From assembly GCA_040285855.1 (NCBI GenBank), contig JAUFOQ010000010.1:1116001-1180000 (forward strand): DNA of 64,000 nucleotides, in the 5' to 3' direction. Position 1 is the stretch's first letter, and each line of letters starts with the position of its first letter. The DNA is from Eukaryota sp. GEM-RC1. Lineage: Eukaryota. Positions 4,227 to 61,427 of this stretch are shown piece by piece. Below the pieces are notes generated by a model. It was not told the DNA's origin. It saw nothing but the letters and a program-made list of their open reading frames with translations, and made no database searches. A program made the translations under genes and the position numbers.

Positions 4227-7029
4227 AATACTCCAGGGATTCTTAAAGTAGAACGCCTTTTATTTACTCTTACAAATACAAACTATCATCAATACTAAGA
4301 AATGAAAAGTTGTTTCTTAAAGTTCTAATACTTTAAGCACTTTAATTTCTTTTCCTATACTTTAAAATATTTTCAGTACTTTAAGCACTTTTTTCTTGAC
4401 TGCTAGGGTGACTCTAGCCATCCAGTACACATCTATTCCTTTTGAAAGATAGAATTAAAACATATTTTATAAAGTAGAAACTCACCAAAAACAACAAAAT
4501 CTAAACTATACATATAAAGACAGAGTGAGCACTCAAGGTTTTACTTGTAAAACAGGAAGTCCAATGTTGTTGGTAGGTCACACAAGAAATGTCATTACAT
4601 TGTCCACCTGTTGAGTTACAAGATTGTATGTTACAGCTTGACAGTATGGTCAGCGTCACAGAGCTTACAACATAACCGGGCGCGTGTTCTAGAGATTACT
4701 TCCAGTACTTCACAGTCTGCAATCGTACAGGCATCGTCGTTAGCTTGTTCTTTGAATTATCTATGGAAAGAAGAAAAATCCAATTCCAAAAATGTCAGAT
4801 GGTTCTGGACCTCTAAGTAAGGGATCATCGTTTTTGAAGATTAACTTAATCGATTGCGGACTTCGTTGTGATTGGTCAGGCGTTCAAGGACTAAATTAAC
4901 GTCATCCAGTTCTAATTCAGTACAACGAGAGTCATCCACTGTAGCCATAGATTGGGAGTCTGTTTTTAGTATCATTTTTATTAATTAAATCAGCTTTTGG
5001 ACAAATGATCTTTTCACGGTCAATGAAGAACAGTAGTTATGTCTTTCAATAGCTCAAAAATTGAAAGCATGTCATACGTGGGATCTTCCATAAACAACAC
5101 AATTTTTAAGTATTTCTTCATCTATTTTATCGAATTTGCACTACAAAAACTGTTACTAATGGATGTTTACTGGAAACACCTTAAATGTGATATGATTCAA
5201 AGTTTTGTTGAGACTGTTTACAATAATGAGAACACTCTTGGAAACGTCACTGTTGATTAAGACATGAAAGGAATTCTCAATATAATACCCAAGATATCTG
5301 CGGATAAATGAGTTTTTCTATTTGTGATACTCAACTAGTTAATAATGAAAACCTCATCTAAACAATGAACTTTGTTAGATGTTGTGTATTGTTATTTTTC
5401 CTTAATCTGTATTCAAATAATGTATTTCTTTTCAAATAACTTTTAGACAACTTCTCTGTAATAGCACCTTTTACTCACAATCTTCATTCATGTAAAAATT
5501 TGGATGATATAATTTAGTGTGACAAGAAGCAATATGATACAGTCAGGTTCCTATAAATTCAAGGTTTCAAGATGTGACACCCTTTCAACTACCTCTAACT
5601 TCAACTTTTCTCCAATTTACCACTTCCAGCTACTAGTACTACTTAAGTGCATCTTCTGAAACCTGTACATTAGTCTTTATGCAGTTTGCTGTTTTTGAGT
5701 CTTTAGTGTACTGCGAGCTCTCGAAGTTCGTTCTAGTTATGCTAATGATTGATAAAATCAGTTTGATGTTATTTTGTGTGTCATAGATCGGTGTCCCGTT
5801 TGCCTGCGATTTTTATGAAGGACAACATTGGTGGAATCCAAAAATTCCCTGAGAATTTCCTAATTCTGCCGCCTTTTTGAACCACTGTAGAGCTTTAATT
5901 TCATTCTTGTCAACTCCATTACCGACATGCAGACGGCAAGATCCACAGTTATCGAATCACATGATTCGAATGAAGGACTAAGCAATACAATGAAGCATTG
6001 GTGTTTTAGGCATGGGACGCAAATTTTCCGTACATCATCGATTTTAGGCGTACAGTACCGTACTGTACTTTTGACCGACTAAAATAAATTAATAAGTTAA
6101 TACTATTTTGTTCATGATGATCCAATGTGAGAGTTACACAGTTACCATCGTCATAAATTCTACCGCTAAAAGATGCTCAGGATATCAATATCGTGATTGT
6201 CAACCTATTTACATTTAGGGAACTTCATTTGCTGATCACGACTTCCCCAAAATGATATTTTTATTTACGAAGCTCATCAATCGCTTGAAATCAACAGTAG
6301 TAGTAGCGTCGTCGAATCACAATGCATTTAACGAGTGACTATTGAATTTAACAATGTTACATGCCCCAAAAACCAACAGATTGGATTGGAGACGATCAGA
6401 AGATGCCATAGCAATTTGCATTAGTACTGTGTTTGACTAGTGAATGAGCATGCACTCAAAAATAGTATTTGCATATCCATTTCGATCATTCATAAATAGG
6501 TTCTTCATAAAATCAAATCACATCAGTACGTACAGTACGTACCACAGATTTGCACACATTGGTTTAAGGTAACACAAGAAACTACATTTACAATGTAGTT
6601 TAAAGTAAGTGTTCACTATACCGTCAAAAGGGGTACTAGTATCAGAAAAAACAAACATATGTTTGTGGGAGGGCGATAAGTGAACTCTAAACTATAATAC
6701 AGATAATTAATCAACATAAATGTCAATAGTAAACCGATCTACATGGTGTAATTAGTTGAACCTTGAACACTACTTTTGTTCACATTCACTACTAATAGAA
6801 CAAATATGACGACGTCATTTTCTTTGTTTTGTTTTGTTTTTTTACATGTATATGTATATGTATTTTTTTGTGTTTGTATTTTGTATTTTGAACATATGCT
6901 TAAAACATACAAGTGAATAGATTGACATCTACAATCTAGTTTGAGAACATCACAACTTATGTTTTTAAAAAGCGGATGTATGTGCGGAGAAATACACACA
7001 ACAAGAAAACAACAAATAAATAAAGACTA

Positions 7030-7434
7030 CTAAAACAAATGATCACACGAACTACCTAATTCCGAAAAGTAGTTGCCTCCAAACAACTTGGACAAAATGG
7101 AATCAACATATCTATACATAGACCGAAAATTCGAAAAACCAAATATACTCTTCCAGTTCGATCGGTTAAACTTCTTGCCAAATTCTGAACATAAATTTTC
7201 AAATATATTTAAAAACTCCTTGGCAGAAGAACCGAAATTTCCGTACAAAGAAACTGCAAAAGCTGCAAGACGACATTATTGTGTCTTCGGGAATTCAATG
7301 CAGCAACTTGATGTACGGATTTAGACACTTTAGCGTGCTCAGCGTCTTTGAGTGGATCATTTAAAGTATTCAAAATATTGGCAATAGCTGAAGCTTTGCA
7401 AGGATCAACAGTCGTAATATCAACAACAATTTCT
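7030..7434 (-). mobile_element. 3' end of a CRE-like non-LTR retrotransposon ORF
   Basis: VVDITTVDPC..AEHAKVSK..FAVSLYGNFGSSAKEFL..SMYRYVDSILSKLFGG..stop; frameshifted. Confidence 0.75.
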
Positions 7435-7863
7435 TAAAATTAGGGTCCAGATTGCCAGGGTTGAATATTGATAGCTAATCAAATATGCAATATTGGCAGT
7501 GGGCAACTCTGCACTATAAGTACCACTAACACTACTATGTTTTTTAACATTTTCTTTTGATTGATTATATCAATTGACCAATATTCCGTCTTACTAAGCT
7601 ATACTTATCAAACAATGACACTTCACAATGTCAAATGTATCAACAATTGTCGTTGTTATTGTTGAACAATTCGTTATCAATATATTTGTATTCCATTTAT
7701 ATACACTAAATATTTATTTCATGTCATTAAAATACATTATACATCTGTTGTTATTTTTAGTTGTTATAAAATGACACTCATAATGATCGAACAAAGTACC
7801 TAAGTTGACATACCATCACTGTGAGTGCCCGTACATGTCAGAAGATGCTGAAAAATCAGTTGC

Positions 7864-17250: not shown

Positions 17251-18667
17251 TCACAAAAGAAGATGATTAATTCCTTCGATTTCAACTGTGGTATTAACTT
17301 TTAATGTTTCTGCCAAAGCTCTACCACCTTCAGCTTTAATATAGTTGTAACTCAGATTAATATATCTGACTGTGCTATTAACATTTAACGCCTCTGCTAA
17401 AGCAGTAGCACCTTCATCTCTAATTAAGTTGCCCTCAAAATTAATATATGTAACGGTAGTATTGACTTTTAACGCATTTGCCAGAGCTCTAGCACCTTCA
17501 GCTCCAATATAGTTTGTTTCAAGAGCAACACTTGTAATTGTGGCATTAACTTTTAAAGCTTCTGCCAGAGCTTCAGCACCTTCATTTCCAAGTCACTCCC
17601 AGATCAATACTTTTAAGAGTAGTATTAACTTTTAACGACATTGCCAGAAGTCTAACACCTTCAACCCCAAGTGAGTTGTTGTAGAAACTAAATCTGGTAA
17701 CTGTATTATTAACCTTCAACGTCTTTGCAAATTCTCTGGCACCTTCAGCTCGAATATTGTTCCAACCCAGATTACAACTCGTAAGTGTATTATTAACTTT
17801 TAATGAACGTGCCAACACTTTAGCACCTTCAGGTCGAAAAGAGTTTTTCCATAGATTAATACCTTTAATTGTAGTATTAACTTTCAACAACTCTGCCAGA
17901 GCTCTAGCACTTTCAGCACCAAGGGAGTTCATACCCAGATCAATACTTTTAATTGTAGTATTAACTTTTAACAACTCTACCAGAGATGCAATGCCCTCTT
18001 CCTTAATAGAATTGTTCCTCAGACTAATACTTGTAACTGTAGTATTAGCCTTCAATGATTCGATGGATACCAAACAAATAGAACGACGAATACGCACGCG
18101 AAGTTGTTTAACACGTGGAAAGAACAAAAACGGGTTATTGACAAACTCCAAGTCATTGGGGCTTTTCAAATCCAATTCCAATCCTGAGATTATAGGAGAA
18201 TAACTAATCCAGTCCTCAACATTAAAGGCCTTGTCCACGTGTAAGAAAATGGACTTGGGATCTGCTTTAAAGAAAGAAGAAAGTGGAAAGAGTTGAGGAA
18301 GGTCTTTTGGAAGAACGTGGAACGTGTTTGTTTGGAAAAACACCTTCGTTGCTAGTAGAGAGGATTCAAAGAAGTGGTCGCTCATATAGCCAAGTTTCTT
18401 GAAGAATTTGGGAAGATCTTTCTTTAAGTTAAGGACATCGGAAAAATCATCACGATCCCAATGAGAAGAATGTTCTAACAAATGATTGAGGAAATGGAGG
18501 TGGATCAAAACGAGAAGAGATTGTTGGAAGCGCAAGATATTGGGAGGAGAATGAGTGGAGGGGGACGTAACAGAGCTACCGCCAAACAACTTGGCCAAAA
18601 GGGAATCAACATATCTATACATTGACTGTAACAATTGAAAGATCACAATGACTTGTGATGACTTCAT
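17251..18667 (-). pseudogene. LRR family gene with retroelement-derived N-terminus, 9 LRRs; frameshifted
   Basis: Close paralog of 42804-44207. A ~5-nt deletion near 17593 (GTG A CTT GGA vs GTA AAC GCG CTT GGA) is not in a homopolymer. The frame resumes to ..IEGINHLLL*. Confidence 0.8.
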
Positions 18668-19049
18668 GTTGTATCCGACATGTTCAACTTTTATCCATAT
18701 TGAGAACTCAAACTTTCCCAAAACTCATTTCGAAACTAAAAATAAACAAGATCTGCGTATACAGAATTCGCAATATGCTGAAAGAAAATACTATTTTATT
18801 CTCCACAATTTAAAACTAAATATAGGGGCCAAGGCTCCTCAAATAAATAAAAATTCTATTTATTTCTATTTATATTTGATGTACAAACAAATACAAAAAG
18901 TTATAGAAATACCGCTAGCGCACTCGTAATTGTGATCATTACTGATAAAATTCTTAATATTGAAGATTTACTGCTTCTCTCTCTCATGACAGAAAAATCA
19001 CCAAGGAATTCTTACGTTTCCCACCACTTCCCCAGATGGTCATGAGGTT

Positions 19050-21751: not shown

Positions 21752-21874
21752 TGTTAGCACAGCAAGTGTTAACACGTGCTCTATTAGTGAACTGTAGTCT
21801 TATTTTACTTAGATTATTCTCTCCCCTTATAAAGGTACCGTCCTTTTTCACTTTCAGCCTTAAACAAGGCATCA
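21752..21874 (+). repeat. 5' LTR (123 bp)
   Basis: TGTTAGCACAGC..AAGGCATCA, repeated at 27829. Confidence 0.95.
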
Positions 21875-21915
21875 ATAGCTATTGGCCGTACAATAAGGCC
21901 TATCTAACCTCAAGT

Positions 21916-26200: not shown

Positions 26201-27779
26201 ACTTCGCTGGTCCGGTCAGCCTCCTAAGAAACCAATCAGAATCATTCCAGAATGGTTCAAAGAAGAAATAGAGAAAGCCCGCAAAGAAAAAGAAGTCATC
26301 GACATAAGCTCTGATGAATATGAAGAAGACCCCTTACCTTCAATCACCTACTCAGTAAGAACAGTCGAAACTCAAGACACAGCCTGGCTTGACACCCTGC
26401 GCACCCAACAGCAACTAGAACTAAAAGACTCCAGTGACAGATGCTCCTGGGACGCCGAAGCTCAAATGTTTGTCACCCCTGATAACAAAATCCTCGTTCC
26501 TGAATCTCTAAGAAAAGAGGTAATGTGGAACTTTCACGGATATGCTCACTGTGGTCACCCTGCCTTGTGGCAATGTCTCAAAGACATAAAAAACAGCTGC
26601 TACTCTTGGCCAACATTAGAAACTGCTTTAAAAAATCACATCGACTGTTGCCACTCATGTCAGAAGACAGCCCCAGCCCCCAAGACGAAAACCCAATCAA
26701 CCGGATCCCTGTTTGCAATGAAACCGTTCGGCAATATCCACGCCGACACTATAGGACCCTTGCCCACAGACAACATTGGAAACAGGTACGTGCTAGTATT
26801 CGTAGACGCCTTTACGAGATACACCATCTTATGCCCCTCAGATAAAATCTCCGCCACTAACTCAGCATACTGTCTTATCAACTCGGTATGCGCCAACTTC
26901 GGCATACCCGACATGATCCACTCAGATAATGGACCCGAGTTTTGTAACGCCACCTTTAAAGCATTATGTGCCTTGCTGAACATAACTAACTCCTTTTCGC
27001 TCCCCTCACCACAATCAAAGTAATGGCCTGGTTGAGCGAAGAAATCGAGAAATCAACCAAACCCTGAAGAGATTTCTCCTAGACTTAAACGACTTCCAAA
27101 ACTGGTCGACTCACCTACCTATGGTGCAGTTGATGATCAACAATCAACGCCACTCAGTTACCAGATGCACTCCATGGGAACTAATGTTTGGATCTCCAAT
27201 CGACCCTAGAAAACCTGCATCAGATCTACTGGAAAAACTAACAGCCAAACCAATGCAAGAAACAGGCAACGTGTTTGTCGATGCCCTCGCTGCAAAAACA
27301 ACCTACTTAAAAGAAAAGTGGAAAAAGCAGCCAAGAACCAGCAAAGTCATCTAGACAAACTTAGACCCAACTCAAAACCGGTCAAGAACCCCTTTGTCGT
27401 TGGTGACCTCGTACTTCGAAAGAATGACCAACCTCAGCGCCTGCATGGCTCATGGTTAGGCCCTTTTCAAGTGCTAGAGAGCTCTCCCGACTCCACGAAG
27501 GTTAAAATTCTAAACTTCGTCACAGGTAACGAACTTACAACCTCCAGCTTGCTCCTTCGCCTATTCATGGCCCACTCATCCAACAAGGAATATCTGACCG
27601 CCATCGCTGCTATGGACCAGCAAGAGTCTATACTGGTGAAAGTGCATGACATTGATCACAGATCCAATAGAGCCCATGTAGAATGGATAGACGGCTCTAC
27701 ATCTATGGAACCTCTCGATGAAATCCGCAAGACCACCGCGTGGTCCAAGGCCAAGCACCTCCACGATGTTCCCCTTTGA
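23124..27779 (+). CDS. pol: Pol: protease, RT, RNase H, zinc-ribbon insert, integrase, chromo-like domain; four 1-nt frameshifts in short homopolymers
   Basis: ALIDSAC; LDLPKAFWQ..FGLKN..YMDD; TDAT..KELFAI..DHKN..ADLLSR; H..H..CHSC; HADTIGP..SDNGPEF..NGLVER; WLGPF; VEWIDGSTSMEP. Confidence 0.92.
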
Positions 27780-35680: not shown

Positions 35681-36217
35681 AGAACATAATGCAGTATTAT
35701 TGAGGAGGACATTTAAAAGTTGTTCCTGACTAACCTAATACTGATGATGTTCTCAATTAAAAATACTACAGACCCCAATATCACACTAGTGAGATTGGTG
35801 ATTGATCGAAGACTATTAATTGATCATTGAAACTATGAAGACGACTAAGACATAAAACTGTGAGTATTGGGACTTTACCTTTAGTTGAATACATTGTTGA
35901 ACACATGAAGAGATATAAGCTTTGATGGAAATGTCGCAGACATCATTGGGCTTGATAAGTTAAGTTTGTTTCAATTAGTATTGTTGTTTTACAAAATGGA
36001 ACCACAACTTCGGTCCATTTATACTGTAATATTACAATGATCATCAAAGAATAGAGAATCTTAATACGGATTTTTATATGATATTTATTCAAATATTTAT
36101 TAATCCTCCCTGTTCAGGATACCTGTATAAATATATTTAAAGCTAATGCTTTTCATTTAACTCAGGGAAACAAAAAGGTTTATTCAATGTACATCTAAAT
36201 ATATATAAATATATCAA

Positions 36218-38115
36218 TCAATCAACGATTTCGAGCACTTGAGAAGAATGCGAAAGCTTAAAAAAAGGATAATAAACATCATTGACATCATCGATTTTCG
36301 TGCTCATATTGATATATCTAGAATTAATTTCCTGGATGGTGAAAATGTAATTGTCCATGTCAGCAGTTAACTCAAGCAAATCGCCAGGTTTCCAATGTGA
36401 AAACTTCCCGGTGAGTTTTCCTTTGTTACTCTGACACATGTACTTGGAATTAGCCATAACATTTGAATGTGATGAAGAATTGTAGTTCCCAAATGGTACA
36501 ATTCCAACACGCAGAGTGCAATCAGTAGTTCCTTCCCACTTAACTTTCCACTTATAAACTCCTCCTTTCTCCAAGGGTTTATCACCAAGAATGGCACGTT
36601 GTCCTCTACTACCAGTATAGGAAATCTTTTTACCAGAGTTTGATATAACAATGTCAGCATTTTTATACTGAGGAGAAAAAGACATTGAACCTGAAGAGGT
36701 TTCAAGCTCTCTACCTAGTAAATTTCGACTGATTTCTGAAATATGATCACGTGGTACATTCTTGCGGATAACTTTATCCAACCAAATCTCCTTATTATGA
36801 CTTACAGTACCTGTAAAAGTGAGTTTTGACAGCAAATCACAAGAAATATCTAGAGTTTCTGGAACAGTCTCAAAAGAAAAAAGATCAATCAATTTTGATA
36901 AAAGAGTGTGACTAGAATAATCGACTGATACTCTGATGAGGGACAAAAAGTCCTCCTTATTTAGAGCAAATAACTCTAACTTTTCCAACATTTTACTAGT
37001 GAATTCTGGATGATGTTCTCTGATCCAATTAAATTCAGAAAGAACAATAGATTGAGAATGATTAATGAAAGAGTTCAAAAGACTGAGCTTTAACTCCGCA
37101 GAAATATCACCACTGATGGATTCTTTTAATTGGGACATTGAAACTGGAGAATTGTCAGACACTTCAGAGATATTTAAGGTTTCATTTGGATTGGAAGATG
37201 ATTTCGATTTGTTACAATCAATAAGGTCTTTCTTCGTCAACTTTGAAGCTAATTTCAAACTGAAAGAATTTGCATTTTGGACAGCATCATTGAATCCTTC
37301 TTTAATGCTTTGTAATGCAATTAAAGCATTATCAATAAATTTATTGCCTTTATCAGCCAACGTTTCATCAACAATAAGTGACCAATTAACAGTATGACCA
37401 GTGTCAAGTTTAACCATCTTTTGCGACGATTGTCTGATCCAGTTGATTACTAATTCATGGAGAATTGCTTGAGTATTTGTCAAAACTTCGGTAACAACTG
37501 TATGCATCTCATCATTGGCTCTGGAGACTTGCGACGTGGAATTAGACAACAAGACTTGGAACTCCTTGACTTGTCCTTCCAACACTTGTCTAGCTTGATC
37601 AAGTGGAATAAGGTCTTGATTGTGATGTGCATGACCCATATGGATAACACATGAATCACATAGAGATACCGAACACTTAGTACAGAAGTGTTCCAAGGAT
37701 TTAGCGGGATGACGTGGACACTTATGGGAAGATAAGGAAGGTTGTTCATCTAGAGAGAGCACATTGTGCGATCGGAGGGACTTAGGCTTATGGATGGACT
37801 TGGAGCATTCATGGCAAAAGAAGGCGTCGCATTCAGAACAGAACAGTGTTGGAGATGCTTCTTCACACTCAAAGCACACCGCTTGAGCCTTTGAAGACTC
37901 CTTGAAGATTTCGATGACCTCCTGCAAGGCTATGTTGATTCGTAAAGGTGTTTGTGGGATTTTTTCGCGACACACAGGACATGAATCATCTTTTGTTTCA
38001 TCCACACAGCCAAGCATTTATCACGACAGAAGGAATGGTCACAAGAAAGAGTGGTAGGATTTTCCATTAGCTCTTCGCAAACTCGGCATTGTAGTTGAGG
38101 TTGAGATTGACACAT
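36218..38115 (-). CDS. TRIM-like E3 ligase: RING, B-box1, B-box2, coiled coil, SPRY-like domain
   Basis: CRVC..CDHSFC..C..CPVC; CFEC..CSEC..CHEC..H..H; CPRH..FCTKC..CDSC..H..H; C-terminal FSPQYKNADIVISNSGK..YKWKVK..VGIV..YYPFF. One frameshift in the T4 run near 37991-37994. Confidence 0.85.
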
Positions 38116-38139
38116 TATATCAAGGTAAAGAGTGTATTT

Positions 38140-38960
38140 CATTTCAACTTTAAAAATCGTATTAGCGTGGCTAAAATCGAGAGTCCCGCTTTTTGTGCTT
38201 TTTTGAAAGACATTTCCAATGATGAGGCTTCTACTTTGATGACGCGATATCCTCAAAGATATAGTTTCAACTTGAAAGATCATGAATGGATTATCAACAT
38301 TCGTTGGAGGTTGGGTTTATGGACTGTTGGTCTCCTGCAAAAGTATTCTTGTGTGTGTGGTTCTTCTTTAGCCTGTTTTCATCATGTGGTCAACTGTCAT
38401 AAGTTTATTCATTTAAGATCAATTATTCACAACAGTTTATGTGATCAATGTTTAGAATTGTTTAAGAGCAATGGTTTCCATGGGAAAATCGAACCAGTTC
38501 AAAAAGTTTATCTGACTCAATTATGAGAGATATGAGCAGAGGTGATTTGATTGGTCCTTGGTTGTCCGCTCAAGGAATAATTATGGACTTCACTACTGTT
38601 GATGCTTGTAACTCAACTTCTGTTAACAAAATTTTTGACGATAACTATTCAGCTCTTTAAACTGCTGAAAGGAAAAAAATAAATCGTTATGACGAATTAA
38701 TTTTTTGAGATGAATTCTCGCCGACACAATCCTGCTTTTGTTTTTTATCCTTTTGTATTTCTCTTCATGGAATATTTGGTTGCTTCGGTCAACAATTTCT
38801 CACAGATTTTGGCAAATTGAACAAGCAGTATAAAACGAATTTTAATGAAAGTTACTTGCGAGGAAGGTTGTCGTTTTCCCTTTCAAAAGCACTGTTCAGG
38901 TATTTTGATTCGATTGTGAACCGTCTCTTTGCATTGAGACATGAATTTGAGATGATGTAG
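38140..38960 (+). mobile_element. CRE-like non-LTR retrotransposon 3' fragment
   Basis: RWRLGL..CVCG..HVVNC..RSIIHN..KIEP..RGDLIGPWL..DFTTVDAC..FYPF..RGRLSFSL..FRYFDSIV..stop. Confidence 0.8.
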
Positions 38961-39163: not shown

Positions 39164-39650
39164 CTACGAGAGATATTCAGGTCTTCCTCTTCCTTCTCTA
39201 TACCCATCTACTATTCTCAACATATTCAAACACACATGCTGATTACGACTCCAATACTTTCTCTCGCTTGATCCTCTACAATTCTCGCTTCGACACTCAA
39301 GTAGACCATGACAAAGCACTTTTGGGGTTTTTTTCTCTTCTGTAGGGTCTTGGATTCTCGAGCGCCATCCGATCCCTCTTGTTGGTCTGTGATGTTTCAA
39401 ATTCACTTGATCATTTGCCCAACATCACCCATACAGATCAGTAGTTCTTCTCTTCTTCGTCCAAAAGTCGATTCGAGTGACTTCAACAACCAGGACTCTA
39501 CTTTCTGCTTATGGGTGTAGGAATGCATTTTTTGGATGCGCCATAAGGCAGAACATTAAAACCAAGCGGTTGAAGTCACTTGTTTCATTTTGGCCTGGAC
39601 CCAAGCTTCGAGATCAGCAAACGTGGCAGATTTTGGACTTAATCCTGAAT
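39164..39650 (-). pseudogene. Fanzor (eukaryotic TnpB-like) relic, C-terminal half with internal deletion
   Basis: SPKSATFADLEAWVQAK..WF*..WRIQKMHSYTHKQKVE..TFG..ICMGD..HHRPTRGIGWR [gap] LCHGLLECRSENC..YWSRNQHVCLNMLRI..GRGRPEYLS*. Confidence 0.82.
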
Positions 39651-40109
39651 ATTTTTTTCAGCAGTAAAAATAGTTGAATAGTATTGGTCTAAAACTTTGG
39701 TAGCAGAAGTTTAGGTTCAAGAATCAACGGTAGTAAAGTCCATAAGTAATAAATTTTATTGTATGAAATATATGGTTAGCGTAATTAAATGCAATGCAAA
39801 TGCTTTGATACAGTACAGAACGAACAATAACAATGACAATTGTTTACATGGCTTCTTCGTTGTCAATTACCGAGAACTGAATGATTTATTATGGTTATAG
39901 GTGTGGTAATATTGATATTAATTGATGGCCTACAATTCTTGTGTTTTCATATGTGATTACCCCAAATGTTTTGTTCGTTTCCAAGTCCTGATTCGATTTT
40001 TACTCTTTCTGTTGTGAACAAGAAACCTTTTATAATTTGTTTGAGCCAGCAAAATTCATTTGAACCAGCTGGCTTGCAGCTGGAAATAGTTCCATATTGG
40101 GACATCATT

Positions 40110-40492
40110 TAGGAGTTTCTGAACAAGTATTCCTTGTTCTTTCCACATCTTAAGAAACTTGATGTGTGGATTTCCAATCTTTTATGGAATAAATCGAACT
40201 ATTAAAACTTAATAAAACAGTTACTAGTGTTAATCTTACTAACAATGTTATTAGAGATAAACATGTTAGAGTTTTGGCAGACACGTTAAAAGTCAATACA
40301 ACATGTAGAAGTTTTAATTATAAACTTAATTTAAACTGTATTGGAGTTAAAGGTATCAGAGATTAGGCAGATGCGTTGACAACTAATGATCTACGTTGCA
40401 ACTCTATTGGACATGACAATGCTGCAGCTTTGGCTGAGATTTGGCAGCAATAATGATTAAGTTGAAATAAAGGGTGGAGATCATCTTGATTG
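40110..40492 (+). pseudogene. Decayed LRR family relic
   Basis: EFLNKYSLFFPHLKKLDV followed by three broken LRR units with stops and indels. Confidence 0.75.
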
Positions 40493-41289
40493 AAGTGTTT
40501 CAATTTTTTAGGTGGTTCCGTGTTGGAGTTAATTATATATTTTTTGGTTTTCTACAATTGAATTAGTGAAATTTTCTATCTTTACCAGAGAACAGTAACA
40601 CGTAAAAATGGAATCTAACAAGTGTTAAAAAGCGTGTTACCTGTTGGGTATTTATGTGCTTGCGTTACAACAATTTTCCTGGTTTCTGCTTCAACGATAA
40701 ATATAATTCCTTTTACAATCGTTTCACCTTTCCTTTAGAAAACCGTGAGTTTTGTTGCCTTCCAGAACAGCAGACGTTTGTGGGGATCTCGAGTGTTAAA
40801 CAATGATCCATAATCGAAGCTATACCGTGGATTTTTATGAAAGACGGTTATTCCCGACTGCTACATAGACTCAAACACCGGTCAAAATCTCTGCAAAACG
40901 ATTCTGTCCGATGATCCGTCTAGACTTTATCTTGTTGTCAAACGTTACAAGGCATTTTAATGAAGAGTTATTGAAGTTTTTGTAGAATAAAACGGTCGAC
41001 ATCTGTCTTCTAACTCCTAATGTTTCAGAGGTACGGAAATGAAAACGCTGCTAGTGTTTACTGTTTATCTATTTTGACTATACAAATCATGTATAACAAA
41101 GAGCATTGAGTAAATTGGGGTGTTGTTGACAGTTGATGTATTATTAAGATGTTTATTTATTGAGCATAATAGCTTAAGAACAGGACAAGAGCAGTACAAA
41201 TCAAAACAAGAAAGAATATCTCACGTAGTTTGATTATTTTTATGTAAGTATATGGGGTAGCGAGCGAAGCCGATGAGTAACTGAATTCC

Positions 41290-41480
41290 GAAATTTTGTA
41301 CCATAAAGAATTTATGATGTTTTTCCAAATGAAATTCCTTATTTTGATCTAATTCTATTCGCATTGAATTCAAATATAGATTAAGATCTTTAGCAATGTT
41401 GTCATTTGAACCAAGATAGCAACCTAGAAATCTAAAACTTGAAGATAAGTATTTCAAAAGACAAGAGGCTCTAATGAATG
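41290..41480 (-). mobile_element. CRE-like RT C-terminal fragment
   Basis: FRFLGCYLGS..IAKDLNLYL, similar to VRFLGSYFG..IESVLKNYL at 61.0-61.1 kb. Confidence 0.5.
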
Positions 41481-41759
41481 ACCAATTAAAGTTACAGGTA
41501 CATTGGCAATCAAAAACATTCAATGGAAGTCCAATAGTATCGTACATATCAGCAGCCTTTTTAGCATGTGCTGCTTTAACCTCTGATTTTTTTTTCATTC
41601 AAATGAGCAAAATGGTATTTTAAATATTGATGTTGAACAAAAGTTTTATGTTAAAAATTGGGGTCGGGTAAATACACCACGTAAATACACCATCTCAGAT
41701 TCTCTCCTATGATACATTGTGTTTATGATACATGGAGTTATACTCTACACAGTTGTATA

Positions 41760-42330
41760 AGTGCTACACCAAATAAGTGATCTGATGGAGGTATTCAGTA
41801 CACGTTCGTGGACCTCCATTCAGTTTTATTAAAGGGACTATTTAGAATGAAAAACGACCATCATTAGATGCTCTTCTTATGTAAGGGAAAACTTCAGTCA
41901 CTTGTGATCATAGTGTTTTTAGTTTGTTGAACAATAACGCTCCTAGGCAGGAGGTATGACTCAAAATAATTTGCGAACATTTTGTTAAACAAAGAGGAGT
42001 GTGACCAGATCAAGCAAAACAACGGTCCTGGAACTCATTGATAGACTACATCGTTAGAACAAATCTATTATGTTGACGAAGATAGGTACAAACAACATTG
42101 AAGTAAATGTTGTTATAGATCTATGTTGTTATGGACGATGGTGCAAATTGTGCTGTACCAGCGGTAGCAAGCCGAGTCTGCCAATAACCTGCTGAAACAG
42201 CGCCTTTTGGTTTCCCAGCCCATGATAAAGGGTGAGATTTACTGCAATGATCCCACCTTTAGTGCTGATGGTAGTAGTGAGGGAAATTGTTTTATGCTCC
42301 GTCGCAAGATTCTTAATCGCTGGAATTTTA
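41760..42330 (-). mobile_element. Possible pogo/DDE-1 transposase relic
   Basis: Fragments TISLTTTISTKG, MFANYFESYLLP and PRTCTEYLHQ occur in the order expected for DDE-1 motifs; heavily decayed. Confidence 0.3.
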
Positions 42331-42872
42331 CCTAATTGTCCCGAGTTCGCTGCTTTTTCAATTGATCTTTGTAATAGTGGAACTCCTGGATTTGTTGCTC
42401 AAATTCCAAAGGTGTATGGATTACATCAATCTGATGAAGCTTGGATGACCAATATGCGTCTTCGCTTGGCTATTTGCCCTGCAAATTTATTAAACTATTC
42501 AATTTGCTCTTGTGGAGCTAATGGTGTTTTTCGTCATTTAATTAATTTTCGTTATTTTATTCATCTACGTGCAGTGATTCATGATGGTTTACGTGATTCT
42601 TGTTACTCCATGTTTACAGCACATGGTTTTCACTCTAAAGTTGAACCAGTTTTGAATCAATAATCTCAAGAGTTGTCATAGGAGCAATAAAAGAAATACA
42701 GTGTTTTACCCCTTTCGTTATCTTACAATGTTCAGCTTTTTGTTCTTCTACTAAGGAGTTTGTAAATTTGTTTAAACAACTAAGTTAAGCATTTGGTACA
42801 AAAATGATCTTCCGATTCTTCAAGTCAATGTATAGATATGTTGATTCCATTTTGACCAAGTTGTTTCGCGGT
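42330..42872 (+). mobile_element. CRE-like non-LTR fragment, internally deleted, running into the LRR gene
   Basis: NMRLRLAI..CSCGANGVFRHLIN.. is nearly identical to the 13.2-13.4 kb copy; then VFYPF..SSTKEFVNLF..SMYRYVDSILTKLF. Confidence 0.78.
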
Positions 42873-44207
42873 AGCTCTGTTACGTCCTCCTCCTCCACAC
42901 ATTCTCCTCCCAATATCTTACACTTTCAACAGTCTGTCCTCGTTTTGATCCACCTCCATTTCCTCAATCATTTGCTAGACCATTCCTCTCACTGGGATCG
43001 TGATGATCCTTGTCTTGATGTCCTTAACTTAAAGAAAGATCTTCCCAAGTTCTTCAAGAAACTTGGCTATATGAGCGACCACTTCTTTGAATCTTCTCTA
43101 CTAGCAACGAAGGTGTTTTTCCAAACAAACACGTTTCATGTCCTTCCAAAGGACGTTATCCCACTCTGTTCATTTGCTTCTTTCTTTGAAGCAGATCCCA
43201 AGTCCATTTTTTTACACGTGGACAAGACCTTTAATGTTGAGGACTGGATTAGTTATTCTCCCATAATTTCAGGATTCAAATTGGAATTAAAAAGCCATAA
43301 TGACTTGCAGTTTGTCAATAACTTGTTTTTGTTCTTTCCACGTGTTACAGAACTTCACTTGCGTATTCGTCGTTCTATTTCTATGGCATCGATCGAATCC
43401 TTGAAGGCAAATACTACAGTTACAAGTATTAGTCTGAGGAACAATTCGATTAATGAAGAGGGTATTGCACATCTAGCAGATTTGTTAAAAGTTAATACTA
43501 CAATTAAAAGTATTGATCTGGGTATGAACTCTCTTGGAGCTGAAAGTGCTAGAGCTCTAGCAGATTTGTTAAAAGTTAATACTACAATTAAAACTATCAA
43601 TCTGTGGAATAACTCTTTTCAAGTTGAAGGTGCTAAAGTTTTGGCACGATCATTGAAAGTTAATAATACACTTACGAGTTGTAATTTGGGTTGGAACAAT
43701 ATTCGAGCTGAAGGTGCCAGAGAATTTGCAAAGACATTGAAGGTTAATAATACAGTTACAAGATTTAGTTTTTACAACAACTCACTTGGGGTTGAAGGTG
43801 TTAGAGCTCTGACTAAGTCGTTAAAAGTCAATAATTCTATTAAAAGTATTGATTTGGGGGTAAACGCGCTTGGAAATGATGGTGCTAGAGCTCTGGCAGA
43901 AGCTTTGATAGTTAATAATACAATTACAAGTATTGCTCTGGAAACGAATTATATTGGAGCTCAAGGTGCTACTGCTTTAGCAGATGTGTTGAAAGTTAAT
44001 ACTGCCGTTACATATATTAATTTGGAGGGTAACTTAATTAGAGATGAAGGTGCTACTGCTTTTGCAGAGGCGTTAAAAGTTAATAGCACAATCAGATGTA
44101 TTAATCTGAGTTACAACTCTATTAAAGATGAAGGTGGTAGAGCTTTGGCAGAAACATTAAAAATTAATACCACAGTTGAAATTGAAGGAATTAATCATCT
44201 TCTTTAG
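42804..44207 (+). CDS. LRR family protein (retroelement-derived N-terminus, core, 9 LRRs)
   Basis: Intact 467-aa ORF; its first 23 aa match the CRE-like ORF tail at ~7075-7135. Confidence 0.88.
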   Translation: MIFRFFKSMYRYVDSILTKLFRGSSVTSSSSTHSPPNILHFQQSVLVLIHLHFLNHLLDHSSHWDRDDPCLDVLNLKKDLPKFFKKLGYMSDHFFESSLLATKVFFQTNTFHVLPKDVIPLCSFASFFEADPKSIFLHVDKTFNVEDWISYSPIISGFKLELKSHNDLQFVNNLFLFFPRVTELHLRIRRSISMASIESLKANTTVTSISLRNNSINEEGIAHLADLLKVNTTIKSIDLGMNSLGAESARALADLLKVNTTIKTINLWNNSFQVEGAKVLARSLKVNNTLTSCNLGWNNIRAEGAREFAKTLKVNNTVTRFSFYNNSLGVEGVRALTKSLKVNNSIKSIDLGVNALGNDGARALAEALIVNNTITSIALETNYIGAQGATALADVLKVNTAVTYINLEGNLIRDEGATAFAEALKVNSTIRCINLSYNSIKDEGGRALAETLKINTTVEIEGINHLL

Positions 44208-44994
44208 TGATCATAGGTTTTTATCGTGTTCACTTAATAAATTGAATTTACTAGTATACGTGTATCTGTAAAACTTTTAGACTACTGAACTTGCTTAATT
44301 GATGAAAGTGGAAAAACAAGTCTAGGTAACAAATTTTACATTTTTTTATAATATTACTAATACACTGACAACATTTATGACCATTGCACAATAGAAGTAT
44401 AAATTTTACCATAACGGTGAGGAAATTAATACACATGTCTAATGGAAAGATATAGACTCCTATCGAATAGAACTGCTGAGTATTTACTCGATTTATCATG
44501 TTACAATTCAAGTAGGTGTATAAACACTGATTCAGTAATTTAAATGTATACCAAATGAATAAGAACATTACTCCTAGTCTAACAATAAATACAAATCTCA
44601 CAAATCATTTTAATATTCCCTTGTGTCTTCTTGCACTTAAGCTAAACAATTCATGTCTCTTACAGTTTTTTCTTTTTTTCCCGGATAAATTCTCCTTTCC
44701 TTCTACTTATGTACTAGTGAAGGGGATATCCAGAACTACTAGAATGATGGCCGTCTATGTACGGACATAGTTTGAATTGATTCAAAAGCTCGCTTTTCTT
44801 CTCATAAGTTGCTAAGTTAGTGAGCCAATCTTCATTGAGTTGGTACATACCGTAAGTTGTACTTTGTAGAGTAGTTGTGTTTATGCAAAAAAACTAACTT
44901 TTGAGGAAGATGTTGATCCAGGATCTACAAATATCATGATAAGCCTATATAACCTCCAAGTTGATGTAGTTCTTTACTTCAACAGTACTATTAT

Positions 44995-45735: not shown

Positions 45736-46145
45736 TGTAAGTATTGTACATACCTTGAAAAACACCTTTATCAACGGGAGTTACACTATTTGTAGGTTCC
45801 GACGACCAAAAGGAAATAAACTTATCTATGCTTCCGTTTAAAAGGCCAAAAAGTTAAAACTATCGTCCTGCAAGACCTGTTTAAACTTCTTACCAAATTT
45901 TGAACACAGTTTTTGAAATAACTTCTGAATTTTTTTTAGCAACAAGCGAAATTTTCACAAAATAGAAAGATTCATTGTGATGACATCACCACGGTGGATA
46001 TATAACAGTGTTTGCTATATTGTGAATCGAAACACATTGAGTGACCGTTGTGTTATACCTCGAAGAAGTGCTAAAAGCGTCAAATGAGACGAATTTTATA
46101 AAGACAAAAATTTATCAAGTTTGTGTGACCATTTTTTTTCGTTTA

Positions 46146-48126
46146 ATGGAACATAATACTGGAGAAAGAACTGCTGTTACATCTTCCTTCAGAGGGTGCG
46201 ATTCTGCTCCTCATTCCTTCAGTTCTGAAGCTGGTGGTCAACCACCCGTTTCCACCCCACGTCCATCCCACGAACAATATCAACTTCCCTCTGAAGCCCC
46301 CTTCACTGCCGAAATCGCCAACGTCCCAGACAGTGCATCAAAAGCTGACATCAAGCAGGCTTTCTCCTCTCTTCCAATTAAAGAAGTTCGATCTCCTAGT
46401 AATATTCCAGGTACGTTCTTTGTCGAATTTCTTGATGTTCAAGGACTCAAGCAATGTTTAGATGAGTACTGGATGTTTAAGATCCATGACCGCTCTATCC
46501 GTACCTATGTAGCCTCTGCTCCTCAGTCTTCTGTTAAACCATTGATTGCTGGCACCTTCTCTTCTAAACCTAATGCTGAACCTATACCACTTGATCTTCT
46601 CCCTTTGACATCCTCATTCCAATCTCCTTCAAGATGCTTACACTCTCAGCAGTCCTTGTTAATTCTCATTAATGTTCACTTGTTGAGAAGTCTCTGTAAG
46701 TCTGCTCTTGAATTGAATCGTTATTATCGTAGTTCTCTTCTTAACTTGAAGAATACTCTTGTTACTTTCTTCAAGAAAGTGGGCTATGTTAGCCATCACT
46801 TCTTTGAATCTGCTCTATTTGCAAGCAAGGTGTTTTTCCAAACAAACACGTTTCAAGTCATTCCTGAAGAACTTCCTCAACTCTGTTCATTTGCTTCTTT
46901 CTTCGGTGCAGATATACAATCTGTTTTCTTACACGTAAAAGGGAACTTTAATGTTGAAGAACATCTGCCTTATTCTAATGTTATTTCAGGATTGGAATTA
47001 GGATTGCAATGCCACAATGACTTGGAGTTTTTGAACAAGTCTTCCTTGTTCTTTCCACGTCTTAAACAGCTTCATGTGAATGTTCTTTCTCCGTTTGCTA
47101 TGATATTTGCAGAATTATTGAAGGAAAATGCTACAGTTACAAGCGTTGATTTGAGGAACAACTCTATTGGAGCTGAAGGTGCAAGAGCTTTGGCAGATGC
47201 GTTAAAAGTTAATACTACAGTTACAAGTCTTGATTTGAGGAACAACTCTATTAGAGCTGAAGGTGCAAGAGCTTTGGCAGATGTGTTAAAAGTTAATACT
47301 GTAGTTACAAGTATTAATATGAGGAGTAACTTAATTCGTGATGAAGGTGCTAGAGCTTTGGCAGATGCGTTAAAAGTTAATCCTAAATATTTAATTATTC
47401 AGCTGCAGGCCAATTCTATTGGTGATGTGGGTGCCAGAGCTTTGGCAGATACGTTAAAAAAATCACACCGCTGTTACAATTCTAAATCTAAGTTACAACT
47501 CTATTGGAAATGATGGTGCTAAAGCTTTGGCAGATGTGTTAAAAGTTACTGTTACACTTACGGGCGTCAATTTATGTTATAATTCTATTGGAGATGAAGG
47601 TGTTAGAGCTTTGGCAGATGCATTAAAAGTTAACACTACAGTTACAAGCGTTAATCTGAGTGCAAACTATCTTGAACCTGAAGGTGCTAGAGCTTTGGCA
47701 GATGCATTAAAAGTTAACACTACAATTACAAGTATTAATCTGAGTTCAAACCGTATTAAAGCTGAAGGTGCTAGAGCTTTAGCAGATGCATTGATAGTTA
47801 ACACTACAATTACAAGTGTTAATATGGGTGACAACATTATTGGAGTTAAAGGTGCTAGAGCTTTAGCAGAAGCGTTAACAGTTAACACTACAGTTACAAC
47901 TGTTAATCTGAGTGCAAACTATCTTGAATCTGAAGGTGCTAGAGCTTTGGCTGAAGCGTTAAAAGTTAACACTACAATTACAAGTATTGATCTGAGCAAG
48001 AACTCTATTGGAAATGAAGGTGCTGGTGCTTTGGCAGAGGCGTCAAAAGTTAATGACACTGTTGAAGTTAATGGAGTATATCTACTTGGAGGTTATATAG
48101 ATTTTCTTGATAATTGTAGATACTAG
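46146..48126 (+). CDS. eIF4B-like RRM, core and 11 LRRs; one frameshift in an A-run
   Basis: LPSEAPFTAEIANVP..FFVEFLD..RSIRTYVA; the ORFs join on removing one A near 47456-47462. Confidence 0.85.
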
Positions 48127-48769: not shown

Positions 48770-51700
48770 ATGTCTACAGACAACAATAATTATTATGTCC
48801 CTTGCGGATCCGCTCCGTGTGACTCACAGCCTCCTCATTCACTAAAGTCTCAAGACCCTACATTGAGTAGGCTGGTTGTAGAGAGTTCCGTTCCTCCAAT
48901 AACTCCCCAAAGATTCTCCGAGGTTGTAGGTTTCGTCCCTGCTCCTTAAATTCAGCAAACATCCCCAGAAGGTTCCGCCCTTCAAAGGATTCCTGTGGTT
49001 GAAGGTTCCGCCCTTCCTTCCCAACCCCAAAGGGGAGTTATCACCATTCGAGATGATAGCTCTCCAGAAGGTCCTGCCCTTCAGAGCTCTCCCTCCCTGG
49101 AAGAGTCCGCTACCCATGATAGGACCATTTCTGAGGATACCACTCCTCCAACGAGTCCTTCCTTCGAGAAAAATTAGAGCTATGTTCAGCGGAGCCCCAA
49201 CTCCGAACAAGCCTTTCCCTACTCTACAATTCTCCTCACTTGCAACTCCCACTCGCAATCAGGAGGGTTTACGCCTTCCACCCAAGTCTTTGCCAAAAGC
49301 CACTTCCAAAAGTGCTCCCATAAAACAGTCTCAGAAGGGTCCCGTTCCCTCATCACTTCCCATAGATGATTTCTTGTCGACTCCACGTGCCCTGGACTCT
49401 GTTCCTCATGTTGGTAAAAAGATCATAGTTTCTCACGTCACTCCCACCGTAGACCCTGACTTAGAAGATCTATGTGATCACGACGTATCTGATGACGAAA
49501 AGTCTGGCCGGACGCCTGCTAAAGACGCGTCTGACCGTTCTCAACCCCCGCCGTTAAGGTCTGACACGGACACGAGAAAGTTCCAAACCCTTCCCATTAT
49601 TCCCGTGTAAGGTGTTTATTCCGGTCAGGTCCTCCAAATCGGCTTCTTCCAAGTTATTCCAGGCCCTTCCTGGACTCTACCAACAAGGGTTAACTGAAGA
49701 GGGACTGAAACTAGCAGACCGTCATATGTTCTCATCAGATCGCCGAATGGTCCATGATTTTCTCCATGGAGTCAAAAACAGTACTGATTACCTCAGAAAC
49801 CGCTATCCGAGATCAGCCGAAGCTGCTAAAAGACCAGGAGACAATTTAATGACGAAGTTATGCCCCTCGAAGGAACATTTACGATCCTTGACGACCGAGG
49901 AAGACCCCATACTATGCTGATGGACCCTAGCAAATTGAAAACCATGATTCCCGTTAATAAATGCTGGGAAACAGTCCAGGAAGTATCAACGGGTCGAATT
50001 TTAGCAAATTCGAATTCGGACAAAACCCATATTCGGCCATGAGATCACAACCCCTCTCCGCTTCCGAAGCTCAGAGTGATCAATCTCGACTGATGAAGTG
50101 GTGATCCAGCCTACTGCATTAAAATACAGAGCTCGAGTGGAATAGGAAGAAGAACTCGCTCGTAGAGCAAATGCAAATCCGAAGTCTAAAGTGAAAGGAA
50201 TTTCCACTTTTCATCAATCACCTTCCGATCAATCAAATCCACTACCTGATGTCCACCAGCTTGGTCTCTCCATGAGTGACCTCAGCACGACAGCAACCTC
50301 CCCCCTCAACTGACATCCTTCCCCCCTGGCTCCGTCAGTTGTGGAATATCCTTCCTCAATGTTCTATAATGTTGTCACATTTCAACAGAAATTCCCAGTC
50401 GACTCTATGAAAATCTCCAAACTTCAGCCTAAGGTGCTTTCGAGTTTGAAACTCTAAGACATCATTGAATTTGCTACAGACTTTCTTCAATGGAGCGTGA
50501 TGGACCCTACCCACAAAACACCGGTAGGGGCTCCATTCGGATGGCCAAGACACTTTTTCGACTTCGATCGAACAGCTGCAGCAAATGCTGACCCTTCTTA
50601 CATCCAACGCTTTGTGAAGTTTGACTTACAGTCCCAACTGTCAATGCAAAAGGAGTGGGATGGTAAGAACCCTCTCACCCTTTGGTTGGCTCTCCTCAAG
50701 CGTACTCAGTTCCCGGACGAAACCACGGCATTGAATGAGCTCAACAAGGTCAACATGAAGTGGTCCATCGCAGACCCCGAAGAGCGATGGAGCGATTTCA
50801 TATCACGTTTACAGAGAATCCAAGCCATCAAGCCGAAGAACAAGCCAATGACTGTTTTGTCAGACAAAGCCATTGTTAAAGCTATTCTATCGAACTTTTT
50901 CATTGTTTCCATCTGGATCGAATGTTGGCCTCTCTACCAGGATTCTGAGGACATCCAAGGATTGATTTTTGAAGTCAAACAACGTTACAACACTTGGTGT
51001 GCGAGATGGCAATCTGCTTCAGCCAATGTCCAGAACGAACAACGAATCACTGAAATCGCTAACCTTAGAGATACGGCAACTTGGGACGACCTCCCCAAAA
51101 CCTGGACTTCCCGTCCTCTCATCCCGGTTCAGTCTAGTGAACCCGGTAAATCTAGAAGATCGGTTTCCAGTTTCAAACCCTCGAAGAAGCCTCGATCAAT
51201 CAATGTCCCGACCCTGAGTGTAGACGCAGTTAACTCCTTTCAGACCAACGAAAGGCCACGAGTACCGTCTCCCAACCACCGAATCGTAGTCGTAGCAAGA
51301 AAAAGTTTCATAAAAAATCTAAATATTTCAATGCACAATCAGTACATATAAACACCCTTGTAGATATATCTGATAACACCACATCATCTATTCAATCAAA
51401 TCCCATTTTGATTGAAACCAATCAATTCTTAAACCCATTGAGCAACATCAGTTCTGCCAATAATAATACGAACTCACAAAACCTGAATTCCATATTCAGC
51501 ATAAGTAGTCAGAACTCACTCAGCTGCAAACTGATGTTTAACAGAATTCGGGTTCAAGGTTTTTGGGACGGTGGAGCAACCATGTCCGTAATCACACAAG
51601 ACCTGGCTATGAAGTGTAACATGACGCCCGTTAACAAAAATGTTCGCTTCACATCCGCAAACAATGTCGAGTCCCGGTCTTTGGATAGCGCCCAGGGCAT

Positions 51701-53629
51701 CTTGACCTTCGATACCAGTAGCATCGCGTACCTGACAGATGTGGATAAGACATTACCAATAATACCTGGATCCAACAAACCATTCTTGGGAATTGATCTA
51801 ATGAAACAGTTAGGACTACTGTCCGAAAACAGACTAGTCATCCGGATTGACAGGACCATCCTGGCCATTGTGAACGATGAGTCCGAGTTCGACTCCGACT
51901 CATACTACATTTCCACAGCCTCTCTATCAATAACGTAGACTTTAATAACCATGTATTTGATTCCGGTTGTACAATACTTTTAGATGATGACACCAGAGCC
52001 GAGAGCTTATTGAACCGGCTTCAGGAGTTTTCCTCAATATTCTCAACAGCTCCTCACAAAGACGGCATCGATTGTCATGGCATGGCATGGCATGGCAATT
52101 GATATCTACAATGAAGAGTCCACTGTGGGACGGAAACCTCGACAGCTCAATCCAATGAAACAGCGGATTGCCGAAGAGATTTTCGATGAACTTGTTCGTC
52201 AGGACTTTGCTGAGTTAACAACTCCTAAACACTTCCTAAAGCATTCTGGCAGCTAAACCTAGCTGAGGACGATGGTGAGAAAACCAGTGTGTCTATACCT
52301 GGGATGTCAATTAACGAGCATGTTTTGGATTGAAAAACGTACCAGCGATTTTTCAAAACATCATGATGGAAATATTCGATGTGGAAGGTGTATTAATTTA
52401 TATAGACGATATAATTGTAGTAGGTGACACTTTCGGACAGTTTATTTCAAGAATAAATCTAGTACTGGAACGAGCAGAACGTTTTAGAGTACGGATTCTT
52501 CCAGCTCCTTCAACATTACCCGAGGTAAGAAGTTTACTTGGCACATTAAATTATGTTCGTGAATGGATTCCAAATTTTTCAAATTTGACTGCCACAATCA
52601 ATGAACTCACTCGTGGAAAACCAATGAAGATTCTATCCCTAGGGATAATGTCGATAACCGAGTTTGCCAATGCTATTTTCGAGGCAGTTTGTAACCTACT
52701 GGCCATTTAAGTAAGTCGTTCGATTCCTCATTTCTCGCAGAGTAGTGGGCTGGTGGAACGACGTCACAGAGACGCTCTGCAGAGCCTACGTCGTCTCCTT
52801 GTGGACTTCAATGATTACGACAATTAAATCAACGTACATTCCAACTGTACAGTTGCAAATCAACGCAACAAAAAGCTCTGGTACTGGGCATACTCCCTAC
52901 GAACTGATGTTCGGTAGCGACTTAAGTCCTAGTGCAAATCCTGATGGTTTACTAGATGCTGTTGAGAAATTGACAAAGAATGTCCCATTTATTGACGACA
53001 TTAAAATGAAACTAGAACGACTAACGAAAAAGAGAGAAGAGGCAGAGATTCGACAATCTTCAATCAAGCTAAAAAAGATTTCTTAACCTAATCAATCATT
53101 TAAGATTGGATATCTTGTGTTGAAAGTCTCCAAAACTAGTAAGCTCCACGGTAATTACTCTGGACCTTTTCTAGTAGTGTCTAATCTGATTACTGGTCAC
53201 GTTATTAAAACTCGCATTCATCAATGTAAGATCTTTCAATCAGATCTACCAGCTGATCATGACATCCATAGAGCAATCGCTTCTGGTGATTCTAAAGAAC
53301 ACATCGTGGTTAAGATCCTGGATAGGTTCAACACACCCAATGCGATGGTGAGTATTGTACGGTCCTCTGGTTTGGTGGTGATACTTTATCAGTTCCCACT
53401 TATGACATCAAGAACACCAAGGCGTACAGTGAATTTGTAAAATTAGAAAATGTAGATTTATTTAAAAGTAGTAACAAGAAACCTAAGCGTACCTCAAGTA
53501 GTACGAGCAATCCTAAAGCAGCCAGCGTCAAGACACCTGTGGCTAAGAGAACAAGGAGCTCGAGAGAAGAGAAGAGGTAGTGTTAGTCAAAGGTATTAGT
53601 ATAGTATCAAGTAGTATAATTTCATAACA
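48770..53629 (+). mobile_element. Decayed Ty3/gypsy element related to the 21.7-27.9 kb element
   Basis: Gag-like ORFs; FWDGGATMSVI protease; KAFWQL..GLKNVPAIFQN..YIDD; deletion from RT into integrase; GLVERRHR, TPYELMFG, YSGPF; purine tract at 53562-53580 followed by TGTTAG. Confidence 0.88.
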
Positions 53630-56348: not shown

Positions 56349-56530
56349 ATCTATGAAGTTAGCTCGTCTTAAAAGTCTTTGCGAATGAGGACATTTATTT
56401 GTTCAAACTGTGAGTTCTGCTCATGAGTTTGCTTACGAGCTTGCTCATGAGATCATGAAAATGTGAAGGGTTATGCCCTTATGCATTTGGAATGAAATTC
56501 ACAGAGGAATTTACCATTGTAACTTACAAC

Positions 56531-61260: not shown

Positions 61261-61427
61261 ATAGAAGCATTCCCAAGTATTTATGTTCCATTTATTCGAA
61301 ATTGTATAGGGACAGCTCTCGTGTTGATGTGGAGAATTTAGCTTCTTTCATTTTCTGAATTAGTATGTATTAATTTGTTGTTGCAAACAAACTCATATAT
61401 ATATATATTTAAAATAACTTCAATATA

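Follow-up and report, generated by a model that had tools for sequence, protein, structure and literature searches.

The acquisition of a transposon-derived N-terminus by a multicopy gene family is a known kind of event. In the Caenorhabditis F-box A2 genes, a Tc1/Mariner HTH has been captured at the N-terminus, and transposon fusions are described, in the available part of the same report, as commoner in multicopy families and often N-terminal (PMC12062965). As far as those sections go, the F-box A2 capture comprises a whole folded DNA-transposon domain, is thought to have been exonized by splicing, is carried by hundreds of genes and has a tested function. Transposon–gene chimeric transcripts that alter N-termini, such as MTA-Spin and MT2B2-Cdk2ap1, provide a further comparison: in the accessible text on these transcripts, transposon sequence takes the place of a host gene's 5′ end and changes the N-terminus, but does so in alternative isoforms that use LTR promoters and leave the host gene intact (PMC13690279).

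Here, we describe two leucine-rich repeat (LRR) genes of Eukaryota sp. GEM-RC1, named A and B, whose first 15 codons come from the ORF of a non-LTR retrotransposon, the ordinary leader having been lost in a fusion that arose once and was then duplicated. The genome report, in the part available, assigns GEMRC to Skoliomonas sp., a free-living metamonad, and gives its genome as 48% repetitive; in its supplementary tables, as accessible, no row was found for genes A and B, the expression table covering the top 100 genes (PMC11316075). The window, i.e. the whole stretch of 64,000 nucleotides that was analysed, is a eukaryotic region dense in LRR paralogues and transposon remains. Literature searches, mostly without subscription journals, found no paper on the retroelements or LRR genes of this organism and nothing on an element–LRR fusion of the A/B type.

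Like the F-box A2 genes in the available description, A and B belong to a multicopy family in transposon-rich DNA and reflect a single gain of a transposon-derived N-terminus followed by duplication. Unlike them, they took 15 codons, located at the far end of a non-LTR ORF, by a direct join in DNA, exist in two copies and gained no domain; F-box A2 is the closest described case, A and B being smaller, with a start codon as the likely gain. Unlike in the MTA-Spin and MT2B2-Cdk2ap1 transcripts, the loss of the host leader is in the DNA itself, and what the element supplies is coding sequence. A and B are an added case of transposon exaptation at its smallest scale and near its start, with a donor family that is still abundant, a breakpoint readable to a few bases and a decayed upstream element that serves as a built-in neutral control. 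Domain-based fusion screens miss captures of 15 codons, so genomes rich in repeats may hold more starts of this kind, rescued from methionines inside elements, than have been counted. N-terminal targeting signals of metamonads are hard to predict, and a possibly amphipathic, transposon-born N-terminus offers a test of how easily they originate. The scope of the event itself is two genes in one lineage.

The element–LRR junction

Gene A lies at 42828-44207 (+), its sister gene B at 18622-17251 (−) and a free element copy, E, near 7 kb at 7466-6816 (−). The features of these loci are as follows.

6816..7466 (−): E, the 5′-truncated reference for the donor family, with RLE core, C-terminus, stop near 7030, 3′ UTR and A-rich tail
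42828..42871 (+): first 15 codons of A, derived from the element (MYRYVDSILTKLFRG) and opening with the likely start ATG (42828-42830); matches 7119-7076
42872..44207 (+): LRR-derived part of A, comprising the end of the Ser-rich leader, a helical N-terminal domain and a ribonuclease-inhibitor-type LRR solenoid
18579..18622 (−): element-derived first 15 codons of B (MYRYVDSLLAKLFGG); matches E, and the P0001 model starts there
17251..18578 (−): LRR-derived part of B, from its alignment to A
42705..42827 (+): decayed element of the captured family, colinear with the captured codons (tblastn 42705-42899)
18623..18800 (−): decayed element upstream of B (105 matches, 50 mismatches and 6 gap runs against the 7 kb copy)
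42340..42659 (+): linker and zinc knuckle fragment of a different RLE family, with 42% amino acid identity to the captured family
44208..44878 (+): 3′ flank of A common with B (17261-16129), in four blocks of 70-88% identity

The 20-mer at the ATG of A has three exact copies in the window, at 7119-7100 (−), 18622-18603 (−) and 42828-42847 (+), against a mean of 0.01 and a maximum of one in shuffled sequence. The first-pass annotation had reported 38 of 39 nt shared between the start of A and the element copy near 7 kb, and we find the same single mismatch between the first 39 nt from 42828 and 7119-7081 of E, rising to three over 44 nt (7119-7076); the first 39 nt of B differ from E at two positions. 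The in-frame junction KLF(R/G)G|SSVTS, said to recur in a paralogue, is indeed present in both A and B. The similarity of A to ordinary LRR paralogues (those at 55330 and 15382) begins at 42872, from which point TAGCTCTG continues the motif that follows the SSNP codons in both of them; the breakpoint can therefore be placed at 42871|42872 to within a few bases, and the overlap between element and LRR sequence at the junction is only partial (3 of 5). Beyond it, the ORF of A is open to a stop at 44205-44207 and contains no intron. The captured segment had been described as the 3′ end of the element ORF, which is right in that it lies near the C-terminus but does not extend to the last codons, since the element continues for a further 14 codons and a 3′ UTR. 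An assembly artefact was rejected because the junction is found twice with independent divergence.

The best database match to the N-terminus of A is a Eukaryota sp. GEM-RC1 protein with 338 residues 100% identical to 18622-17609 of the window, and an exact look-up of the A protein from five possible starts returned none. Metagenome and viral contigs held 0 exact matches to the 21-mer searched, and their pattern matches (154 and 11) included 0 confirmed relatives.

Upstream of A, 42705..42827 aligns to the 7 kb copy with 92 matches, 34 mismatches and 7 gap runs, a score reached by 0 of 2000 shuffles; this DNA carries a deletion of ~30 nt and an in-frame stop at 42786-42788, 14 codons upstream of the ATG. 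The score of 18623..18800 was likewise reached by 0 of 2000 shuffles, and the in-frame stop of B stands 35 codons upstream of its ATG. The retroelement sequence that had been noticed further upstream of A is present but proves to be a mosaic, in which 42705-42871 belongs to the family of the 7 kb copy and 42441-42659 to another. The latter stretch shares 93.6% identity with a copy at 13429-13211, and no counterpart of it on the same strand lies upstream of B; by sequence comparison, the 42340..42659 fragment is probably a separate, later or younger event. A 54-nt stretch at 19403-19456, opposite in orientation to B, is 78-80% like the knuckle region at 42577-42629 and 13293-13241.

The donor retrotransposon family

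A search with the last 76 residues of E returned four clusters, two of them with 18 members, so that the family amounts to at least 38 annotated proteins, 32 of them listed, on at least nine contigs of differing length; E itself shares 76-87% amino acid identity with the element protein P0011. The motif MY[RS]YVDS occurs in 16 of the 32 listed donor-family proteins, ~28 residues before the end, and the others have an earlier stop or a frame change. SMYRYVDS, which the first-pass annotation had read as part of full-length element ORFs, is thus internal to element ORFs, and that reading stands. In the 48 alignment rows that reach the methionine position, 16 have M and 27 have I, V or L, so that the site is hydrophobic and lies in a conserved C-terminal helix of distant relatives. 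The methionine thus lies inside an RLE-type non-LTR protein, and the sequence passed from element to gene.

The longer proteins of the family contain a CX1CX8HX4C knuckle, followed by HN, E, RGD, D and KVSKY. KVSKY, which corresponds to the KX2KY catalytic-lysine motif as given in the accessible part of its source (PMC5678591), is found in 23 of the 32 listed. When compared with the order and spacing of the SLACS/CRE endonuclease consensus, as set out in the available text (PMC12857005), none of the 32 matches strictly, while eight that are long enough match once two positions are freed (LHN, RGD). The donor family therefore resembles SLACS, CRE, CZAR and MoTeR in having the knuckle, HN, E, R-x-D, D and KX2KY arranged and spaced as published, and differs in having LHN and RGD instead of RH(D/N) and (R/K)PD. 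Its copies also seem dispersed, lying between unrelated genes in the window, and no site specificity, such as the insertion into spliced-leader arrays or telomeres that marks the CRE clade, is apparent. The label ‘CRE-like’ given at first reading accordingly holds at the level of the endonuclease motifs only, and membership of the CRE clade is a lead suggested by these motifs.

An exhaustive search with the element found 235 relatives at an E-value ≤ 0.001, of which 150 were listed. RVT_1 was recognized in 10 of 26 hand-picked long relatives (26-42% identity), in nine of them upstream of the matched stretch within the same ORF. In the donor family itself, the longest listed protein has 368 aa, and none of those listed is a full-length ORF. 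The element tail matched no Pfam family and no PDB sequence, and its structure model has a pLDDT of 33.

Non-LTR copies are usually 5′-truncated with the 3′ end kept, and E, the one copy examined, fits this pattern, its 5′ end being missing and its 3′ end present; its flanks show no convincing target duplication. Many donor-family pieces (P0009-P0022) are broken at one place upstream of the knuckle, and the family may have spread largely as defective copies. Elsewhere in the window, an RT fragment (RVT_1, E-value 4.8e-6) at 60308-61360 runs directly into the element C-terminal motif, as an internally deleted non-LTR copy, and related RLE-family fragments occur at 4057-4224, 12801-13479, 15573-15809, 36112-36156, 38137-38930, 39650-39850, 41221-41598 and 45807-45969. 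Outside the window, the model of P0005, which bears the GEM-RC1 name, has an LRR-like N-terminal half followed by this element tail as its C-terminus, so that the order found in A and B is reversed, and the library protein P0199 is a 1068-aa surface-protein-like model whose end is part of the ORF of a related element.

The LRR family and its leaders

The LRR family was counted among annotated proteins, using 7998 best candidates of 274-2000 aa as 90% cluster representatives. A profile of the N-terminal domain identified 68 annotated members, all named GEM-RC1 or encoded in the window. Many ordinary leaders start like MSHSEPPLKRSRS and run through SSSNPSSD, and 7 of 66 contain K[KR]x[KR], which we take to be a nuclear-signal-like pattern. 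An element match is found in one of the 66 comparable leaders, that of B, and the junction in one of the 68 annotated members, in addition to A. The Ser-rich leader, thought at first to have been replaced as a whole, has lost its first ~35-40 residues but retains its Ser-rich end. Other leaders also vary: a longer RRM-like leader is present in 14 of 68 members, including the genes at 46146-48126 and 56459-59224 (weak RRM_1 matches), and a few members have Cys-rich RING-like leaders.

In a quickly built tree of 69 N-terminal domains, A and B form one clade (SH-aLRT 100) with P0002 as sister (95), and the next relatives carry the ordinary leader; from this nesting of the A/B clade among genes with ordinary leaders, it follows that the capture is derived and was a single event. 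P0002, a protein with the GEM-RC1 name encoded outside the window, has a SWIM finger (PF04434) in the leader's place, joined one codon from the A/B breakpoint. Such fingers are typical of Mutator-type transposases, and the P0002 leader may have come from a second capture of transposon sequence, from splicing into the local TAG or from an error in the gene model.

The LRR nature of A is well marked, with LRR_6 matched at an E-value of 7.6e-29 and a structure model of mean pLDDT 91 whose best matches are LRRs of ribonuclease inhibitor (RI) and NLR type. In comparison with RI, NLR LRR domains, RanGAP and FBXL2, residues ~100-459 share the fold of RI (Z 33.7, rmsd 3.0, 331 aligned), and unlike NLRs, A is without a nucleotide-binding domain, residues 35-100 forming a helical cap. 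The N-terminal domain has no PDB sequence match. An F-box-like lead in the cap scored 0.87 in the Atlas, below its bar, and the F-box family is absent among the 25 families shown for the 68 members; FBXL2 aligns to the A model from residue 35 (Z 24, rmsd 6.9).

Residues 2-13 of A are modelled as a helix (pLDDT ~46), followed by a disordered linker, and the hydrophobic moment of the captured helix ranks second (A) and third (B) among 67 leaders. A high moment would be expected of any piece of an amphipathic helix and is, alone, no predictor of function; the captured peptide is predicted to form such a helix and may have a function of its own. A broader and rather doubtful reading would join these observations: the LRR array would diversify by leader swaps at one hinge, with transposons as donors, and so retarget the protein. 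A and B would have taken the C-terminal amphipathic helix of a retrotransposon and their sister a SWIM finger, and a basic, nuclear-signal-like leader would have given way to a membrane- or organelle-binding helix.

Start codon, origin and duplication of the chimera

Conservation relative to E changes at the ATG. In A, 34 of 126 positions upstream of it are mismatched against 1 of 39 from it (Fisher p 3e-4), and in B, 50 of 155 against 2 of 39 (p 2e-4). When A is compared with a family protein, 9 of 22 residues differ upstream and 1 of 13 from the Met (p 0.04); between A and B, the step is from 6/24 to 3/45 (p 0.04). As A and B share a stem, these tests on the two genes are not independent, and the segment itself was chosen for being conserved. 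E also departs from the majority of the family, at 5 of 26 upstream residues and at 0 of 13 beginning with the Met (p 0.11); part of the step is therefore not specific to the chimera, and the divergence of E itself inflates the nucleotide contrast.

Over 454 codons, A and B differ with dS 0.21 and dN 0.07 (pN 0.067 vs pS 0.182, p 1e-8), a pattern that shows purifying selection on the chimeric gene in both copies. Constraint extends to codons 16-81, before the next Met (pN 0.034 vs pS 0.223, p 3e-4), and translation must therefore begin upstream of codon 16, whereas no constraint is seen on the eight in-frame codons that precede the ATG (pN 0.26, pS 0.21). Within codons 1-15, all three differences between A and B are nonsynonymous, with none at the 9.5 synonymous sites, so that the captured segment evolves slowly without a dN/dS signature, and gene conversion could instead account for its low divergence. 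Other upstream in-frame ATGs are private to each gene, at −8 codons in A (42804) and −15 codons in B, which leaves the ATG of the element as the sole upstream in-frame start common to both. As for a shared upstream exon, 40000-42804 compared with 2.2 kb upstream of B yielded no candidate, no same-strand block exceeding 16 nt. Two automatic records start at the element ATG, P0001 and an Atlas entry equal to the 459 aa of A letter for letter, and both skip an upstream in-frame ATG; such database starts lend weak support to its use. Taken with the constraint on the following codons, the common ATG suggests that both genes are translated from the element-derived start.

We consider it probable that A and B descend from a fusion at the DNA level in which an internal methionine of the element became a start codon, the chimera being duplicated afterwards. 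A same-strand element copy would have stood upstream of an LRR gene, and a deletion, the simplest joining event, would have brought the element up to the leader, removing the last 14 codons and 3′ UTR of the element together with the promoter and first ~35-40 codons of the gene. The internal Met would then likely have become the start codon of the fused gene, and its promoter would lie in the decayed element DNA upstream. The first importance of the captured peptide most likely lies in its having given the gene a replacement start and so kept it alive. The initial proposal of a chimeric gene with a start codon from the element and a later duplication is in keeping with the internal position of the motif, the single clade, the step at the ATG and the constraint before the next Met.

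The main competitor, which we judge unlikely, is that the captured codons are passengers: the genes would not, or would no longer, be expressed from this ATG, and the 39 nt would owe their conservation to gene conversion, either by the abundant 3′ ends of the element or of A and B by each other. Synonymous differences are indeed few (0 in codons 1-15 and only one in codons 16-30), E has a weak conservation step too, many of the at least 38 annotated donor-family proteins are 3′-end pieces that could act in conversion, and B is frameshifted. Yet the selected codons 16-81 need an upstream start, and A and B have no other in common; conversion confined to the time before duplication would make 2/39 differences improbable (p 0.018 at pS 0.182), and a conversion tract ending at the ATG would be a matter of chance. 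It is less probable still that 42830-42874 is a 45-nt in-frame intron (GTATAG...GGTAG), translation beginning upstream and the conserved stretch serving as splice signal. Both A and B keep GT and TAG, ordinary paralogues also have TAG at that site, and the P0002 model switches leader at nearly the same point. However, 45 nt is long beside the three introns of the Rab gene in the window (27, 30 and 28 nt), a comparable in-frame GT..AG span is common, occurring at 7 of 14 GTA sites in A, the upstream codons are unconstrained with no upstream exon common to A and B, and an intron interior better kept than its flank would be unexpected.

Two other explanations involve the element's own machinery. 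In target-primed reverse transcription, a 5′-truncated copy of an LRR mRNA could have been made by an RT that switched into the interior of the element RNA; the lack of introns in A and the partial 3-of-5 match of element and LRR sequence at the junction are compatible with this, and its product would be identical to that of a deletion. We hold it to be about as improbable as the intron, given that uninterrupted ORFs are found in ordinary window paralogues as well, that neither gene is followed by an A-run ≥ 8 (an old tail could have decayed) and that the sole direct repeat flanking A, of 10 nt, is expected by chance and falls within the flank shared with B. The remaining proposal, raised by the first-pass annotation, was that the LRR gene is cargo moved by the element, whether by 3′ transduction or in an LRR-encoding element family. 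It would fit two copies with one junction, but the element ends 14 codons before its stop, without the 3′ UTR and tail that E has; together with the missing A-run and the chance-level repeat, this disfavours transduction. No LRR motif occurs in 148 listed element relatives, the junction is confined to 1 of 68 annotated family members, and the copies share a 3′ flank with no target duplication and are 24 kb from each other within one LRR cluster. This proposal is not supported, and we regard it as highly improbable.

After the fusion, the chimeric gene was duplicated, and A and B stand in inverted orientation, 24 kb apart, in a single LRR cluster. Their shared 3′ flank extends in blocks to 44878 and 16129, respectively, and the later copying was therefore a DNA duplication. 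Since then, the LRR region of B has acquired a 5-nt deletion near 17590, a frameshift, which the deposited model bridges with a 31-nt GT..AG intron at 17610-17580 (−). This intron is close in size to the native ones (27-30 nt) and is possibly either an intron gained from coding sequence or an artefact of the model.

The remainder of the window includes LTR-retrotransposon-like regions at 21736-27779 (a 1046-aa frame with RT, RNase H and integrase) and 48930-53440, the Rab GTPase gene with its three introns of 27-30 nt at 19542-20100 (−), a RING/B-box protein gene at 36218-38316 (−) and a gene for a CCDC81-like HU-domain protein at 61428-63197 (−).
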